62,306 bases of DNA, filler included, from Rhabdomonas costata (GCA_019059605.1; 24 parts of 24 records of this genome joined end to end with filler, not necessarily neighbours in it); one strand, 5' to 3'; counted from the first letter of the whole stretch, positions 21,647 to 59,287 are shown. Notes: generated from the letters alone by a model not told the origin. A program made the numbers and translations.

Positions 21647-22403
<757 letters not shown>

Positions 22404-23170
22404 TAAGCGGACTTGACGCTTTGGACATTAACATAACACATATATATAACACATGACATAACACATTGGCTGAAAGTTACAAAACGCAAGCACTTTCAAC
22501 CTCAGTCACGTTTTTCCCGGGGGGAGGGGTTAGGAGTTTGTGATATGATATCATATTCTGTTTTTGGTGTTGGTTTTAAAGATGGTCCGTTGCGTTGGAG
22601 GACATCGGGCACGTTACTGTCACCTCCTGTTTTTCTGGTTGTGGTTCGTAGGGGTTAAAATGCCCATGACAGTAGACAGTATAGTGAATGCACTGGGGGG
22701 GGGGGTGTTTGATGCACTGGCTGTAGCTGATTGGGATTTGTCTTTGTTCTTTACTTTTTGTCCTTTTGGGGCATCCGGGCTCGTTCATCTGCGTTACTTT
22801 GTGCGTTTGCTCACTCAGATTTTCAAATAGAAGCCCATGGAAGCCCATGGAACTGTGCGGGAGTGTGGTGTGTAGCCAAAAGAATGGGCGTGTGCCTGAA
22901 GTCAACGCAGCCACTTGATATGTGCGTGTTTCGCTGGTGTACCGCAGATTGACAATTCCACCAAATGCGTCGGGTCTTCCGCGGGGTGGAGCCTTGCATA
23001 CCCGGGAAGTTTGCGTCACTTTGACCTCAACCAAAGTCTCTTTTTTACGTTTCCTTGGAATGAGGGCGATGACGCAGCACTGTTAGGTCTAGGATATTAC
23101 GGGTGGGTGTCCCAGATACAGAGACAGAGAGCTTTTAAAACCCATCGGATCATCTCTCTTTGGTTTTCAG

Positions 23171-23307
23171 GTGGTGACCTGGGGGTGTTCGGCCGCGGGG
23201 AGATGCAAAAGCCCTTCGAGGATGCCGCCTTTGGGTTGAAGGTTGGGGAGATGAGCGCCATCGTGGACACCGACTCTGGCCTCCACCTGGTCTACCGCAC
23301 TGAGTAA
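23171..23307 (+). CDS. PIN1: Pin1/parvulin peptidyl-prolyl isomerase, terminal exon
   Basis: TTTTCAG acceptor, then [47 protein letters not shown], the parvulin C-terminal signature. Confidence 0.9.
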
Positions 23308-52377: not shown

Positions 52378-54399
52378 GATGGCAGGTGTGACCACCTGAG
52401 AGCCGCTGCCGATGCGGGAGATGTCTCGACGATGCGCAGCCTGCTCAAGACGGGTGTGGGGCTCTGTGTGGGGGTGGTGTTTGGAAAACGGGGTCTCTTT
52501 CAAGCAGGATAATAAGGTGTTCTCCATGGTGTTCTCTTGGATTATCTCTGTGATGCGATTGCTGCTTTTGTCTTCCTCTTGCAAAGCAAAACAGTCAGAA
52601 ACTGAGGTGCCACTTTACTGGCTCTTTGAGCCGGATTATCGCCGTAACTTCATAGCGGTACCGCCGCACCTTCACTTCCCCAAACCCCATATGAATCACC
52701 CCCACTTATCGCCGAGCTAGTCAAGCCCGCTGCGCAGAATACGGTGGCCCCTGTTCGCTTCTTTGGGTTCCTTCCTCATGCTGTGGAGTGGAGTTGGTGC
52801 ACGGAAGGGAAGTCTGGAGAACCCTTTTCATGACATCACACGCCCACACCTTGGGATTCCTTGAAGCCACTTCCATGATATTACGGGACTGATTTGCAAT
52901 TGCTAGGCGTCAACGTGAACCAGGACGTCTCCGAAGAAGGCACCACGGCGCTGTGGAGGGCGTCCTATGAGGGGCACTGGGCCATTGCGGAGCTCCTGCT
53001 GCAAGCCGGTGCCTTTGGCTCTGCTGCTATGCTCGAGGGGACCTTTTATGCACCTTTTCGGGGGTTGTGTTCCTCCGCTTTGATGCAGGAGACAAAGTCT
53101 AAGGGGTTGCACGGGGGGGGGGGCTTTAAATGGTTTAAAGGCTCGGCTTCCCGGGAACCCCCTTTTTATGTTTCGCTTTTGGTGCGCATCTTCACGAAGA
53201 CCTCCCAGTTCCCCGACGTTGTTTGGCCCCAGCCGCCCGCTCGGGCCGCCGCAGCTCTGGCCTTCGCAACAAGAATAACTCTTTCCCATTAAGCTACAAT
53301 CTCTTGGGAACCGCTCATCGCCGCCGATATCCCCGCAAAGTTTGCCCTGCAACACACCAGAAATACGGAGGAAAGGCACCGCAAAAACGAAATTCCCCGA
53401 CTCACACCTCACCGTTTAACACCCCCCCCCCTATAAAAATGCATCACAGTGAGTTGTGTGCGCCACACTCACTTCATTCTCAACGCACTGCCTGACATAC
53501 CTCACCTACAGCCCTCGCCTACCCATTGAGATTGAGGTATAGCACCTGAATGCAGAATACTGTCTTTTTGCTTCTTTTTGTGGTCGCCAAGAATGGACTA
53601 GAATTGAGATACGAGTTCCTACACCACTTCATCTCATACAGTGGAGATGGGGCCCAAGTGTTGATGAGATGGGTTTTGGTTTTCATTGCGAATCAGTGAT
53701 GGGTCTGTCTGCCTTTCCTGCAGGTGCGAAGGTGAACTATGCGAGGAGAGATAATGGCATGAGTCCCCTGTACATCGCCGCTGAGATGGGACGCATTGAA
53801 CTTTCCCAGCTTCTCCTTCAAAATGGTGCAGCATGTGTGTGCACACGCCCACAGTTGTGTTGTGTTTCTCTCTGAGCGTGTGTACTGCGTTTGGTTTTTT
53901 CGGTTGTTCACCTGACAAGTCTTTTTTTGTTGTTCCCCTGCTTTGTTTTTGGGGTGTACAGAACAATTATGTGAGTGAATTTCGTTCAGAATTGACGTCT
54001 GCTGGTAGGTGCATGTCATTGTTTATAATGTGAGTCTAGCTTCTTGAAACGGGGGCGGATGACTTTATTTTGTGTGTGGTGTAGTGTGTATTTTTGTTTC
54101 TTATAGGAAAGCTCCTTTTCCTGGCTGAACGTGAGAATGAACCACACAAACAATTGCTTTTGTATGACCACACGGGGTCTACGCAGCCATGTACACCGTG
54201 TCAGACCTTGACAGAAGCAGTCATTTCTCTTCGCCCTGCCCAAGCGGGTCATCGCCCACGCACCGACCTGTGAACTTCGGCATTCTTTGCGGCGCAGGTG
54301 CGAATGTCGACCAGGCTAACACGAACGACGGCTCCACCCCACTGTACGCCGCCTGCGCAGAGGGCGACCTGGAGCTCGCCGAGCTTCTCCTGGCGCAGG
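52378..54399 (+). CDS. Ankyrin-repeat protein, one repeat per exon
   Basis: Exons 52378-52453, 52907-53008, 53724-53825 and 54298-54399 (last three 102 nt, phase 1): GTTALWRASYEGH, GMSPLYIAAEMGR, GSTPLYAACAEGD. Confidence 0.93.
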
Positions 54400-54851
54400 G
54401 TGCGGTCCCGTTTGGGTTTGGGAGAGTTTTCTGACATTTGTGAGCGGGTCATCTTATCACTTGCTCGTTAGTGGCTGAATCGGGACTCGCGCTCCCTACC
54501 CCCCCCCCCCCCNNNNNNNNNNNNNNNNNNNNNNNNNNNNNNNNNNNNNNNNNNNNTTAATTAATTAANNNNNNNNNNNNNNNNNNNNNNNNNNNNNNNN
54601 NNNNNNNNNNNNGGGTTGGGTGTCTGTGGGCCGCTCTGCCTGCCCCGTTTTGGTCGCGTAAGTTTTGGGGAAGGCGAGTCCCCTTCACAAACAACATAGG
54701 CATAGGTCAAATAACGACACGGTGATGTTCTATAAATATACTTGCGCGACAAGCGTGTGCACCGGCCACCGCGCTTGAGAATAAAACCGCAGTGAACTGT
54801 ACATGGGATGCAAAGAGATGGGGGTAAGGGAGACACTGATACGCTTTAGGC

Positions 54852-57110
54852 TCAGCATACGGGGGGCACGCTGCGCACCCCCTCCGCGCTGTGCATCGCG
54901 GCCAAGCCATTCAGAGAGGCCGCCTCCGCCGCATGGGCAGCTAAGCCGGGCTGAGCCCGGGCAATCCTCAGAGACTCCTCGTACAAAGGCTCCGCGGCGG
55001 TGAACCTGCCCTGAGCCTTGTACAGGGTGGCCAAGCCGCTCAAGCTCAGCGCCACGTCAGGGTGCCCGTCTCCGAGGCGCAGCCTCCGAATCCGCAGAGC
55101 CTCGACATACAGGGGCTCTGCGGCCGCATACTTCCCCAGAGATTTGTACAGCCCAGCCAAGCTGGTCAGAGTAGCGACAAGAGCAAGGTGATCACCACCC
55201 AGCGTTTCCCTCTGGATCCCCAGGCTTTCCTCCAGCAAGGGCTCCGCAGCAGAGGGCTTGCCTTGAGCTCGGTATAGGGCTGCGAGGCGGCTGAGAGCGA
55301 TGGCCACCTCAGGATGGGTGCTTCCCTGAAGTTGCTGGCGGATTTTCAAGGACTCTCCCAGCAGCGGCTCCGCAAGCGCGTACTTACGCCAGGCCTGGTA
55401 AAGACCTGCAAGGCAGGCCAGGCTCTTCGCCACATCAAGCGATTCCGCCCCGAAATGCTGCTTCCGGATTTTCAGGGATTCTTCGAACAGCGGCTGCGCG
55501 GCTGTAAACCTGCGCAACGCCTGGTAGAGCAGCGCGAGATTGTTGAGGCTGTTTGCGACCTCGGGGTGCTCGTTACCCAGGCGCTGTTTGCGGATCTTCA
55601 GGGACTCTCGGTACAGTGGCTCAGCAACGTCGAGCTTGCCCTGGGAATGGTATACCATCGCGAGGCCGTGCAAACATGTGGCCACGGTGTCGTGATCATT
55701 GCCAAGCTGTACTTTCAGCTTCTCGAGGGAATCCAAGTACAGCAGCTCTGCCTCAGAATGCCGTCCCTCCTTCTGAAGCAACCGCGCAAGAGCACCCTTC
55801 GCCATCCCTACAGAAGCGTGCGTAGGGCCAAAGAGGCGCTCATCCGACGTCAATCGATTCCTGAAGATTTGCTCCACCTCACCAAGGCCGCCGTCGTCAC
55901 TCAAGAAGTCATCGGCGATGCTCCAAAACTCGTCTGTCGCATCCATCTCAATGACAAGCACCGGCTGCTCGCCGACCTCGATGGCAGGGCGCAACCCCAA
56001 TTCTTCACGCAGCTGTGATATGCTCACTCGTTTCATGCTCTTCAGTCTAAACTGCTGCCCGGTGGGGAAAAGCACTTCTTCCTCCTCGGAATACATCGAC
56101 AGATCTGAAAGTTTTGCGGCACAACAACGAGGATTCGAAGGATCTCCAGCGTGCAAAACAAAGAAAGCATTGCTGTACTTCTGTTCAAGTTGGGCTACGG
56201 CTTTCTCCGCAGACATGGTGCAAACCACGAATCCTTCAGAAAAGACTGCATTCTGGTGAACAGCATCGTTGGTAGCGTACTTTTTCAAGAGGTCAAGGCT
56301 GGGTGTACCAGCGGCATAGCATACCCCAGTGTGGGGTGCACGCTCCGTCAAACGTATCACTGCACTGTGCAACAACCAGACAAAGGGCCCCACAGGAGCC
56401 TCGGAAGAGACCTCAAGGGCACCCAAAGTGGCATTCACGCAGTGATACAGGAAGGACTCCATCGCGTACAGCTGCAGTGCCAAGTCGAAAAGCTCATCGT
56501 CGTTTGCTCGCAGGTAAACTTCTCGGAGGCGATGCGCGACTTGCTCCGGAGTTGGGTGCCGCGACCGAAATTCATTTTGCTCCTGAAGAAGCTGCTCTCG
56601 AAGCTCAAGCCAAGCTGTATATGCCAGATTTTCCCTGAGAAAGGCAGATCCTTCCTGGTGCACACCACCGCACAGAATCTCCACCGAAATTTTCGCCCTA
56701 TTAAAGTTGACGTGACGATCCCAAGAAAAGGGGCTGATCGCAATGGAGCGGGCAACACCACGGGAATAGAGCCTAAGATTGGCAACCCCACTACCTCGGA
56801 CCGCGGCGCCTTCTTCCATCGCAGATTCGGCCCCAACAAATGCTACCATCACTCGAAGGCACTCGGGGTGCTTCAGGGAATTCGCCTTGCAAATGTCCAG
56901 CGGGCTGTCACCCGCTGTATTCCTGAGCTTCTTCACGTCAACAACTCGCTGGCGATAGTGCGCGAGAAGCCAGGCTAATGCCCTATGACGGCCCCATTCC
57001 GCAGCAATATGAATGGGCTGACACCCCGTCGAAGGCTCTGCCCAGTTCAGGCAACCTTCTCCGCACCACTCAAACACCACGGACATCACCGACAGATGTC
57101 CCCAACACCC
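54852..57110 (-). CDS. Ankyrin - ADP-ribosyltransferase (ARTC-like) - TPR (42-aa, kinesin-light-chain type) protein, 5'-truncated, intronless
   Basis: Open frame of about 750 aa running to the contig edge. ANK: QPIHIAAEWGR, GDSPLDIC. ART-like ~56492-55941: LYAMESFLYHCVNATL, CYAAG, GFVVCT, LSDLSMYSEEEEVLFPTGQQF. Seven 42-aa repeats from 55820: HPEVANSLNNLALLY..AEPLYEESLKIR. Confidence 0.9.
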   Translation of the reverse strand, partial: GCWGHLSVMSVVFEWCGEGCLNWAEPSTGCQPIHIAAEWGRHRALAWLLAHYRQRVVDVKKLRNTAGDSPLDICKANSLKHPECLRVMVAFVGAESAMEEGAAVRGSGVANLRLYSRGVARSIAISPFSWDRHVNFNRAKISVEILCGGVHQEGSAFLRENLAYTAWLELREQLLQEQNEFRSRHPTPEQVAHRLREVYLRANDDELFDLALQLYAMESFLYHCVNATLGALEVSSEAPVGPFVWLLHSAVIRLTERAPHTGVCYAAGTPSLDLLKKYATNDAVHQNAVFSEGFVVCTMSAEKAVAQLEQKYSNAFFVLHAGDPSNPRCCAAKLSDLSMYSEEEEVLFPTGQQFRLKSMKRVSISQLREELGLRPAIEVGEQPVLVIEMDATDEFWSIADDFLSDDGGLGEVEQIFRNRLTSDERLFGPTHASVGMAKGALARLLQKEGRHSEAELLYLDSLEKLKVQLGNDHDTVATCLHGLAMVYHSQGKLDVAEPLYRESLKIRKQRLGNEHPEVANSLNNLALLYQALRRFTAAQPLFEESLKIRKQHFGAESLDVAKSLACLAGLYQAWRKYALAEPLLGESLKIRQQLQGSTHPEVAIALSRLAALYRAQGKPSAAEPLLEESLGIQRETLGGDHLALVATLTSLAGLYKSLGKYAAAEPLYVEALRIRRLRLGDGHPDVALSLSGLATLYKAQGRFTAAEPLYEESLRIARAQPGLAAHAAEAASLNGLAAMHSAEGVRSVPPVC

Positions 57111-57211
57111 NNNNNNNNNNNNNNNNNNNNNNNNNNNNNNNNNNNNNNNNNNNNTTAATTAATTAANNNNNNNNNNNNNNNNNNNNNNNNNNNNNNNNNN
57201 NNNNNNNNNNT

Positions 57212-59287
57212 GTGGTGTGGCCGGCGTTCAGTAGCACCACCATGGACGCGAAGGTGGCAAAAGACTTCCTGAAGGGCAAGGAGGGCCAGGCCGCCCGAGG
57301 GACGCTGTTTATGGTGAACACGCTGAAGGGTGGGCGGACCCGGGCCCGGGCGATCAGCAGGCTGTCTGCCTTTGGGAAGGAGCAGGTCCGCTTTACTTTC
57401 GCAGTCTTTTTCCTCTTCGTTGGCATTTGACATTTGGCATTGATGACCGCGGCTATGGCTTTTCGAATGAAATCTCCGTGCGCCTGCCCATCCGTGTCCT
57501 CGCTTTTCAACCGTGGAAATTTTGCACACGGCGTTGCTTTCTCACTTTTCTGTTGTGCAGGAAGTGCTATTTCGCTGCGACACTTGGTTTAAAGTGTCGC
57601 AGCGGTTGGGTCCTGCGGGCAAGAAATTCCTGGAGAGCCAGCTGGGCCGCTCCCTTGACAGTGTCGAGGTGTGTGTTTAGGCAGCACGGCATCTTGTCGG
57701 CATTGCCGCTGCACCCCTCCACTCCTCGCGCGGTGTGTTCGGTCTTACTTGCTTCCTGTGCTTTCGTTCGGCGACGTTCTGCTCCTTTGCACTCTCCTGC
57801 TCGCCGGCAAAATCCCATTCGCCCAGAATATCTTTTCAGCCTTCAAACAAACACAAAGCGAGCAAGCAGACACCACTGTCTGTAAGTCAGTCTAAGAAGA
57901 TAACCCCTGCACCACTGGAAATACACAAAAAAGGTCTTTGAGCTAGTGGAGGTGACGGAGGAGGAGGCCAGGGCGGCCACGGTGAAGGATGAGGCCCTGC
58001 GGACGGTGAACGCGCTGCGGGTGCTGCAGGCCATGCAGAGAGGCATCCCAAAGGAGGCGCTGAGCCTGCTGCTGCTGGAGGAGCCGTGCGACGTGGACCT
58101 GCGGGACGAGAGCGGCGACCCTATGCTGTCTGTGGCGGTGCGGAAGGGCTACTCTGAGGTCTTCCAGAAGCTGGTAGAGCGCGGTGCGGACATCCACGCG
58201 AAGGGCGAGCACGGGCGGACGGCATTGCACTGGGCTGTGGTGGAGGGCCATGCCGAGGCTTTGGAGACGCTTCTGCTGTGCAACGCAGACCCCAACTTGC
58301 AGGTGCGGCTTTTTTTCTTGCGGGTTTGCGGGTTACAGTCAGTCCGTACGACGTGGCAGGGCAAAGGACATAACGCAACGCGTGAGTGGTTTCCTGTCCT
58401 ACGCCCACAGGAGGGAGCGGCGAAATGAGCAAGCAAAATAGTTCTCACGGAAGTCAGCAGAGAAACAGAGTCAAGAAAGCCCAAAAAACAGAAAAAGCAT
58501 TCTTGCGGCTGGAACTAGTGCCGATTCAAGGCGCACCATCCTAAGAAGAAGGGGGACGAAGCTTCCCGGGATGGGCTTCTCACGGCGAAGGCCAACCCGA
58601 ACCTGCAAGTCTGTATTGTCCTGTTTCTTGCCGCGGGGCTGATTTCGGATTACACCAGTTGCCTGGTGAGCATTCAGAAACAGTCCTCGTCACCATCCTG
58701 CATCCCAACTGCATGGATGCGCCCCTTGAGCACGGCACCACCTTAGGTCCGCCTACAGCCATGGTCGTAATATATTCTCGCGTGCAAGACTCCCTGTGTT
58801 GCACCTTTTCCCCCTCGGGCCTTTGTGGACTGCTTCCTTGGGCAGCTTTTCTTCCCCCTACTTTCTTTTTCTGTCCTTTTCGCTCCGCAGGACTCCGCGG
58901 GGAAGACCGCGCTGCACTGCGCCGTGGAGAAGGGAGACGGGGCTGCACTACTCAGGGCGAAGGCCAACCCAAACTTGCAAGTCTGTGCTTTCGATATGTC
59001 TCTTTTCCTGTGCTATGGAATATCAGACTCGCTTCACACACTTTCCGGGGAGCTGCTTTCACCGAATCTCACTCATACGTGACCATTGTCCAAGTCAAAA
59101 TGGACGCTTGCACAGCGTTTCAGGTGCCCGGCTGCGCCAATCTCTGTGAGTTAATGTTAGGCCATTGTCGCGTGCGCTCACGTTTTGGCCATAGGATTCG
59201 CACGGGTGCACCGCGGTGCACTACGCCGCGAAGGCTGCGAACGTGGAGGCCATCACTGCTCTGCAGGGCGCCGGTGCCAGCCTGAGT
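57212..59287 (+). CDS. ADP-ribosyltransferase (ARTC/R-S-E clade) domain followed by ankyrin repeats; spliced, truncated at both ends
   Basis: Exons 57212-57385, 57561-57668, 57934-58302, (~58531-58608), 58891-58980 and 59195-59287, all phase 0: VWPAFSSTTMDAKVAKDF..GTLFMVN..RAISRLSAFGKEQ|EVLFRCDTWFKV..LDSVE|VFELVEV.., then ANK repeats GDPMLSVAVRKG, GRTALHWAVVEGH, GKTALHCAVEKG, GCTAVHYAAKAA. Confidence 0.88.

Follow-up and report, generated by a model that had tools for sequence, protein, structure and literature searches.

Two unlinked predicted genes joining R-S-E-type ADP-ribosyltransferase domains to ankyrin and tetratricopeptide repeats in Rhabdomonas costata

Two ART-repeat genes on separate contigs

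The stretch of DNA analysed here (the window; 62,306 bases), taken from the Rhabdomonas costata assembly GCA_019059605.1, consists of 24 unlinked contigs of 2498–2505 bp each, separated by spacers of the form N44-TTAATTAATTAA-N44 (for example, at 2505–2604 and 57111–57210). The second of these spacers separates contig 22 (54613–57110) from contig 23 (57211–59708), each of which carries a predicted gene joining an ADP-ribosyltransferase (ART) domain of the R-S-E clade to ankyrin (ANK) repeats and, on contig 22, also to tetratricopeptide (TPR) repeats. The interval 54852–59287 thus opens with the stop codon of the contig-22 gene and closes where the last recognisable exon of contig 23 ends, with an artificial spacer inside it, and the two genes are physically unlinked, as an earlier note on this DNA had stated. 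The same note had counted two ART-bearing contigs among the 24, and a six-frame hidden Markov model (HMM) scan of 1899 open reading frames (ORFs) with both profiles gave the same figure, with no further ART on the other 22 contigs. Starts of at least seven bases made up of G and T only are present in 21 of the 24 contigs and ends made up of A and C only in most of them, which we take to be the signature of degenerate-primer whole-genome amplification; given these primer-like termini, the outer ~10 bases at both ends of every contig are untrustworthy, including the first three codons of both ART genes.

The gene of contig 22 is a single uninterrupted ORF in which an ANK remnant is followed by the ART domain and then by seven TPRs (Table 1). 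Its product, P0001, matches the Pfam families TPR_12 (E 3.3e-64) and TPR_10 (E 3.2e-59) over seven stretches, and the 42-residue period of these repeats is confirmed by a spacing of 126–129 nt between repeats in the DNA. With a mean identity of 46% to one another, as against 69% in the relative P0005, the TPR units are not homogenised. The evidence for the ANK remnant is homology, in that the same stretch of the homologues P0002 and P0003 passes the Pfam Ank_2 cut-off; both homologues extend ~190–210 residues further upstream than the truncated P0001. The C-terminus of P0001 reads ...P-P-V-C. Contig 22 is among the GC-richest contigs of the window (57% GC), and the two ART genes differ in GC content at third codon positions (GC3; 64% for contig 22 versus 83% for the contig-23 exons), a gap for which expression level, gene age and origin are possible causes.

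Recognition of the ART domain of contig 22 comes from family-level and structural comparison. A phmmer search of PDB sequences with the single contig-22 ART region gave no match. An alignment of 18 family ART cores (A2), which served both as a profile and for AlphaFold2 (AF2) modelling, matched XopAI (E 4.8e-7), HopU1 (E 1.3e-3) and Vis (E 2.1e-3) among the PDB sequences, and the family columns Y-R, G-F-x-S-x-T and E-x-E-V-L align with the YRG, STT/STS and ExE motifs of HopU1 and Vis. The earlier note had named modelling of an ART fold as a check, and the contig-22 domain came through it: the AF2 model of P0001 residues 115–420, built with A2, has a mean predicted local distance difference test score (pLDDT) of 85.4 and a predicted template modelling score (pTM) of 0.85, and its Foldseek matches listed from the PDB include, all at a probability of 1.00, the R-S-E ARTs HopU1, XopAI, Plx2a, C3bot, Tre1, Vis, SpvB, CDTa, C2-I and VIP2. 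In the ESM Atlas, the clusters nearest to the model belong to eukaryotic ART families of haptophytes and rotifers (score 0.96). As for the alternative H-Y-E (PARP) clade, P0001 has no PARP match in Pfam and the structural neighbours listed are all R-S-E enzymes. We therefore consider it settled that the contig-22 domain is an ART fold of the R-S-E clade; the fold evidence pertains to contig 22, as contig 23 holds half a domain.

The gene of contig 23 is split by introns, its five modelled exons being all open, in phase 0 and delimited by GT..AG borders, with 65% GC against 52% in the introns. Exon 1 carries the motif P-A-F-S-S-T-T, and its terminal E-Q is joined to E-V-L-F across the phase-0 intron 1. 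Once spliced, exons 1 and 2 reach 20.6 bits with the A2 HMM, and their hhalign alignment with the family profile (probability 94.5%, E 8e-8) covers 66 columns, beginning at the S motif and ending past ExE; when exon 3 is added, the alignment stays colinear into the V-x-V-V-E-L strand of the family, which reads V-F-E-L-V-E-V at the start of exon 3. This exon runs from ART into ANK within one reading frame (Pfam Ank, 53.6 bits; Ank_2, 54.1 bits), and the Ank scores of exons 5 and 6 (20.9 and 19.1 bits) lie just below the single-repeat cut-off. The visible ART–ANK order covers the gene only from the S motif onwards, the N-terminus and the R motif lying upstream of the contig. Judged by its motifs, this type of gene looks catalytically competent. 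A direct repeat of 47 nt (58568–58614 and 58940–58986) is 85% identical between its two copies. The 3′ end of the contig (59584–59707) is a terminal palindrome with 61-nt arms, 97% complementary, and a 2-nt loop, which the amplification probably produced, as a hairpin or chimera artefact without biological meaning.

Hence, the claims of the earlier note that the ART domain occurs in different domain orders, ANK–ART–TPR and ART–ANK, and in genes of different structure, intronless and phase-0 spliced, both stand, with the proviso that ART–ANK is the visible part of a predicted gene and that the GT..AG exons of contig 23 are likewise predictions. An assembly chimera as the source of the apparent shuffling was considered and rejected: exon 3 of contig 23 holds both ART and ANK, and the ANK–ART–TPR order of contig 22 is colinear with transcript-derived homologues.

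Table 1. Features of the two ART genes, in coordinates of the window.
Feature	Position	Strand	Basis or remark
TGA stop, contig-22 gene	54852..54854	-	ORF reading
Intronless ORF, 752 codons (P0001), N-terminus truncated by contig end	54855..57110	-	First three codons probably primer-derived
Ankyrin-repeat remnant, residues 26-89	56844..57035	-	Pfam Ank E 0.013, Ank_2 E 0.02, both sub-cut-off
ART domain with family-specific N- and C-terminal extensions, residues 115-420	55851..56768	-	Profile, AF2, Foldseek
Seven 42-residue TPR units, KLC/NPHP3 type (TPR_10/TPR_12), residues ~432-747	54870..55817	-	Pfam, DNA period
Contig 23, exon 1: ART beta strand, F-S-S-T-T (STS) motif, up to G-K-E-Q	57212..57385	+	First ~10 nt probably primer-derived
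Intron 1 (GT..AG, phase 0), splitting E-Q from the second E of ExE	57386..57560	+	Intron at same position in relatives
Exon 2: catalytic Glu (EVLF...) and following ART strands	57561..57668	+	HMM, hhalign
Exon 3: last ART-family strand (VFELVEV), helical linker, ankyrin repeats	57934..58302	+	Pfam Ank_2 E 2.4e-14; hhalign colinearity
Half-ankyrin relic or alternative exon, 26 codons	58531..58608	+	Duplicate of exon 5 3′ end including splice donor; no Pfam match
Exon 5: one ankyrin repeat (30 residues), phase 0	58891..58980	+	Pfam Ank E 4e-4
Exon 6: one ankyrin repeat (31 residues), phase 0, then GT donor	59195..59287	+	Pfam Ank E 1.7e-3

Relatives of the two genes and the state of their catalytic motifs

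A HMMER search of 1.84 billion representatives with residues 100–450 of P0001 returned 489 proteins at E ≤ 0.001; because the query included the first TPR, most of the 150 matches listed are TPR-only, and 20 of the 150 cover the ART part. A word-index search with the same residues gave no match among 7999 candidates, although HMMER found clear relatives. The two best matches are both from R. costata, namely P0002 (848 residues; 40% identity over 333 residues, E 2e-71) and P0003 (55% over 161 residues), and further relatives come from Euglena longa and Euglena gracilis as well as from several ENA, Logan and JGI proteins, one cluster including a Picozoa single-cell record. The named sources among the matches listed are R. 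costata (three proteins), E. longa and E. gracilis. When the 20 ART-region homologues were compared with Pfam, the ART domain family PF01129 was reported in eight, above the cut-off in three of them (P0004, P0005 and P0009), and flanking Ank and TPR were found in six (P0002, P0005, P0006, P0008, P0017 and P0073), the ANK–ART–TPR members of the family. Their layout consists of ANK, an S-P-L-I-G-D-R linker, ART, a V-x-V-V-E-L-x-A-V-D strand and a TPR_10/12 array, and contig 22 is colinear with P0002 from end to end. Consequently, the view of shuffled domains taken in the earlier note was not upheld for contig 22: the ANK–ART–TPR architecture is shared with Rhabdomonas, Euglena and other protist records and, from these comparisons, looks vertically conserved.

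Within this family, the R. costata protein P0003 starts with M-G-C, presumably a start of the myristoylation/palmitoylation type, and P0002 ends in C-S-F-M, resembling a CaaX box; some members may be lipid-anchored. A full-text search of the literature found no description of such ART-repeat proteins in euglenids, although the fusions may already be catalogued, and the terms ADP-ribosyl, ankyrin and tetratricopeptide do not occur in the searched passages of the main text of the R. costata genome paper.

The family alignment has the catalytic Arg in 16 of the 20 rows that cover the position; it is replaced by Ala in the window protein, by Cys in P0002 of R. costata and P0017 of E. gracilis, and by Gln in P0008 of E. 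longa. In contig 22, the Arg strand reads C-Y-A-A-G at the Y/F-R-G position and the STS motif reads F-V-V-C-T, with Val at the Ser position, whereas the ExE region is intact (E-E-E-E-V-L-F-P) and the G-Q-Q-F and Cys-Cys motifs of the family are kept. The missing Arg and Ser align exactly to the YRG and STS motifs of HopU1 and Vis that contact nicotinamide adenine dinucleotide (NAD). Since Arg and Ser are replaced and ExE is retained, the contig-22 ART is probably NAD-blind and, by analogy with XopAI, probably a non-catalytic peptide-binding or scaffold protein. A maximum-likelihood tree pairs the window protein with P0002 as its sister (support 98/96) and places P0152, in which R-S-E is intact, as their outgroup (100/99); the two Euglena proteins, both long-branched, group with intact members in another clade. 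As the losses fall in separate clades, there were at least two losses of the NAD-binding residues, after each of which the degenerate lineage was retained. The coexistence of active and inactive members claimed in the earlier note is thus supported at the level of motifs, contig 23 having S-T-T and E-Q-E and contig 22 being devoid of Arg and Ser.

Two further motifs recur in most members of the family. One is a conserved Cys-Cys-Pro in the loop between STS and ExE, and the other is S-P-L-I-G-D-R just before the ART domain, which the window protein has as S-P-F-S-W-D-R. The Arg of this second motif looks invariant and could be an intramolecular pseudo-substrate, comparable to the Arg peptide of XopAI itself.

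The contig-23 gene belongs to a different set of sequences. Relatives of exon 1 that are 81% identical to it (P0156–P0158) were found on short ENA and Logan contigs, with an intron in the same place, and near-identical relatives of the contig-23 type amount to 13 distinct sequences on 13 public contigs. In P0160 and P0162, there is an upstream exon reading N-A-A-L-R...L-P-L-Y-R-G, with the Arg motif present. Across the 12 relatives that span the stretch, the 48-residue exon part occurs in 2 distinct versions versus 7 for the 30-residue intron read-through, a pattern of sequence variation consistent with several real copies whose exon is under selection. The read-through relatives P0159, P0160 and P0162 have no Pfam match; a search with exon 3 gave 61 matches, all of them generic ankyrin proteins and none with ART, and no transcript-derived relative with exon 1 or exon 3 was found in EukProt.

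Among the other contigs of the window, contig 21 carries two more ankyrin-repeat exons on the plus strand (53543–53872 and 54168–54431; Pfam Ank E 5.7e-6 and 7.4e-7), so that ankyrin genes are present on three of the 24 contigs, apparently with one repeat per exon. The plus strand of contig 9 holds an exon with an EF-hand pair (E 5e-13) and one with a parvulin-type peptidyl-prolyl isomerase (Rotamase, E 1e-10), at 21972–22403 and 22900–23304, respectively. An open frame of 499 codons on contig 13 (31880–33376, plus strand), the longest of the window besides that of contig 22, has a sub-threshold match to dCache_1 (E 8e-4), and an ORF on contig 20 (50976–51542, plus strand) matches DUF229 over a short stretch (26 bits; cut-off 25).

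Weighing the explanations

We regard it as rather probable that the two loci are unlinked nuclear ART-repeat genes of euglenid-like type, the contig-22 gene encoding a non-catalytic protein and the contig-23 gene an active one. Both products would be cytosolic, with protein-binding solenoid repeats flanking a mono-ADP-ribosyltransferase domain of the R-S-E clade. The ART of contig 22 would most likely act as a peptide-binding or scaffold module, as in XopAI, with the ANK and TPR arrays holding its partners; the contig-23 gene would represent a canonical, intron-bearing, multi-copy subfamily, most likely of active arginine-type mono-ARTs, in which the C-terminal ankyrin array may recruit substrates in a tankyrase- or OspC-like manner. 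Several observations weigh against this account. The score of P0001 alone against PF01129 (18.9 bits) is below the cut-off of 22.3, and the loss of Arg and Ser falls short of proving inactivity, as the E-E-E stretch and the Cys-Cys of the loop could support an unusual chemistry. For contig 23, the ART evidence consists of a spliced fragment of 94 residues, with the R motif off the contig; exon 1 on its own matched no entry of Pfam, NCBIfam or the PDB; one locus may be counted more than once among the 13 public relatives, by way of different assemblies; and the relic half-repeat exon leaves room for the gene being a decaying copy.

A different significance was given to the two genes in the earlier note, which saw in them a candidate sensor-effector family, strongly expanded and possibly serving NAD-consuming immunity, with active and inactive members. 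Spelled out, this would be a nucleotide-binding leucine-rich-repeat (NLR)-like system in which ANK and TPR sense ligands, ART acts as an NAD-consuming or target-modifying immune effector, and inactive members serve as decoys or helpers. We find this unlikely. The presence of ART on two of 24 contigs corresponds, if the contigs are a random sample, to a 95% interval of 1.0%–27% (one-sided 95% lower bound, 1.5%) and would imply many copies in a large fragmented assembly, but both uneven amplification and a preference of the assembly for multi-copy DNA could make this figure too high, and the 150 matches listed include only five euglenid-named proteins. The 13 near-identical contig-23-type variants, each on its own contig, the coexistence of degenerate and active-looking members, and the phase-0, one-repeat-per-exon layout with tandem exon duplication, which would permit repeat shuffling, are all in line with such a family, as is the mutual similarity of the P0005 TPR units; yet the window TPR units are far less alike, and the architecture is kept across distant lineages at 22%–56% identity, with well-supported subclades. 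Moreover, Pfam scans of P0001 and 20 relatives revealed no NACHT, NB-ARC or other nucleoside triphosphatase (NTPase) domain, no oligomerisation domain was found in P0001 or the full-length relatives, and PADLOC returned a generic TPR match, with nothing for the ART part. As read from the sequences, the missing NTPase, the deep conservation and the non-homogenised TPRs count against an immune role, and, by analogy with known systems, the repeats may be at least as well explained as modules recruiting substrates or partners as by ligand sensing.

The remaining alternatives concern the individual genes. That the contig-22 protein is still an enzyme, acting through non-canonical NAD-binding residues or on other substrate chemistry, appears improbable: its ORF of 752 codons is intact, the E-E-E-E-V-L-F-P, G-Q-Q-F and Cys-Cys motifs are kept, and the substitutions at the Arg and Ser sites persist in the R. 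costata sister protein, which points to selection on the domain, but a binding role explains this conservation equally well, the lost residues correspond to those contacting NAD in HopU1 and Vis, and XopAI, the best sequence match, has an ART fold reported as unable to bind NAD (PMC6829252). Quite improbable, in our view, is the proposal that the locus on contig 23 belongs to a large set of decaying, non-functional copies, either pseudogenes or repeat-associated fragments. It would account for the half-ankyrin relic exon with its duplicated splice donor in intron 3, for the many near-identical relatives on short contigs and for the failure to find transcript-derived relatives in EukProt, but the five exons are open, in phase 0 and bounded by GT..AG, exon GC3 is far above intron GC (83% vs 52%), the catalytic S and ExE are intact and, in the relatives, the exon is conserved far above the adjacent intron (2 vs 7 distinct strings, n = 12). 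Lastly, bacterial contamination of the amplified single-cell assembly, or a very recent bacterial transfer, could be suspected from the intronless, GC-rich contig-22 gene and from the bacterial effectors that are its nearest solved structures. We reject it as exceedingly improbable, given that the best homologues are transcript-derived euglenid proteins, that the gene model of contig 23 contains spliceosomal introns and that the P0005 ART core had no relative in 185,579 genomes of prokaryote species, scanned by a pattern search that detects close relatives only.

Beyond the reading that we prefer, with one probably non-catalytic and one putatively active gene, a more far-reaching picture can be drawn, that of an intracellular arginine-ADP-ribosylation network of euglenids and some other protists, with one diversifying ART-repeat family as its source, in which intact, multi-copy 'writer' paralogues of the contig-23 type would be accompanied by NAD-blind 'reader' or 'decoy' paralogues of the contig-22 type, with new specificities gained through phase-0 shuffling of single-repeat exons and, possibly, an NTPase-free surveillance of non-self. 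We offer this as speculation and consider it quite improbable that the picture would hold as a whole.

Comparison with known systems and significance

The closest parallel to the contig-22 protein is XopAI, a Xanthomonas type III effector (PDB 6k93, 6k94 and 6kly) that is the best match of the family profile and among the top structural matches. XopAI is reported to have an ART fold with an altered site that cannot bind NAD and captures an arginine-containing peptide via a glutamate of the ExE region (PMC6829252). Like contig 22, it is devoid of the canonical Arg and still has the glutamate of that region; unlike contig 22, it is a secreted bacterial effector of ~300 residues with no ANK or TPR arrays, and the identity in the structural alignment is 13%–15%. 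HopU1, Vis and the C3-like arginine/asparagine mono-ARTs (PF01129, PF03496) share the fold and the order of motifs with the window genes, and the P-A-F-S-S-T-T and K-E-Q-E-V-L-F of contig 23 are nearly those of HopU1 and Vis. By contrast with these toxins, the eukaryotic genes of the window encode repeat fusions that are apparently cytosolic and in which neither signal nor translocation parts were seen, and contig 22 is missing R and S.

Combinations of ART activity with repeat arrays are known from elsewhere. In tankyrase, an ankyrin array resides in one polypeptide with an ADP-ribosyltransferase and recruits its substrates; the protein has a SAM domain and no TPRs. Tankyrase, however, belongs to the H-Y-E (PARP) clade, as opposed to the R-S-E clade here, and no PARP is among the profile or fold matches listed. 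In the bacterial effectors OspC3 and CopC, which catalyse ADP-riboxanation, an ART-like domain is reported to be followed by ankyrin repeats (PMC9239266). This ART-then-ANK order resembles the visible part of contig 23, but the sequence and fold matches listed from the PDB for the ART family contain no entry for OspC or CopC. The NLR-like STAND proteins of fungi and bacteria share with the window genes the 42-residue KLC/NPHP3-type TPR and ANK arrays; they differ in that their central NTPase (NACHT/NB-ARC) is absent from P0001 and its 20 relatives, and in that the repeats of the window protein are not highly alike.

Taken together, these comparisons describe a real modular ART-repeat family that includes active-looking and degenerate members and is functionally uncharacterised, with homologues already present in public protein sets. 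The advance lies mainly at the level of annotation, given that the domains are standard ones and the homologues are public. To our knowledge, work on R-S-E ARTs has dealt almost entirely with bacterial toxins and with the ecto-enzymes of vertebrates. A protist family that is conserved and cytosolic would widen the known intracellular roles of the ART fold in eukaryotes, and its two or more independent losses of the NAD-binding residues provide natural pairs of enzyme and pseudo-enzyme for study.

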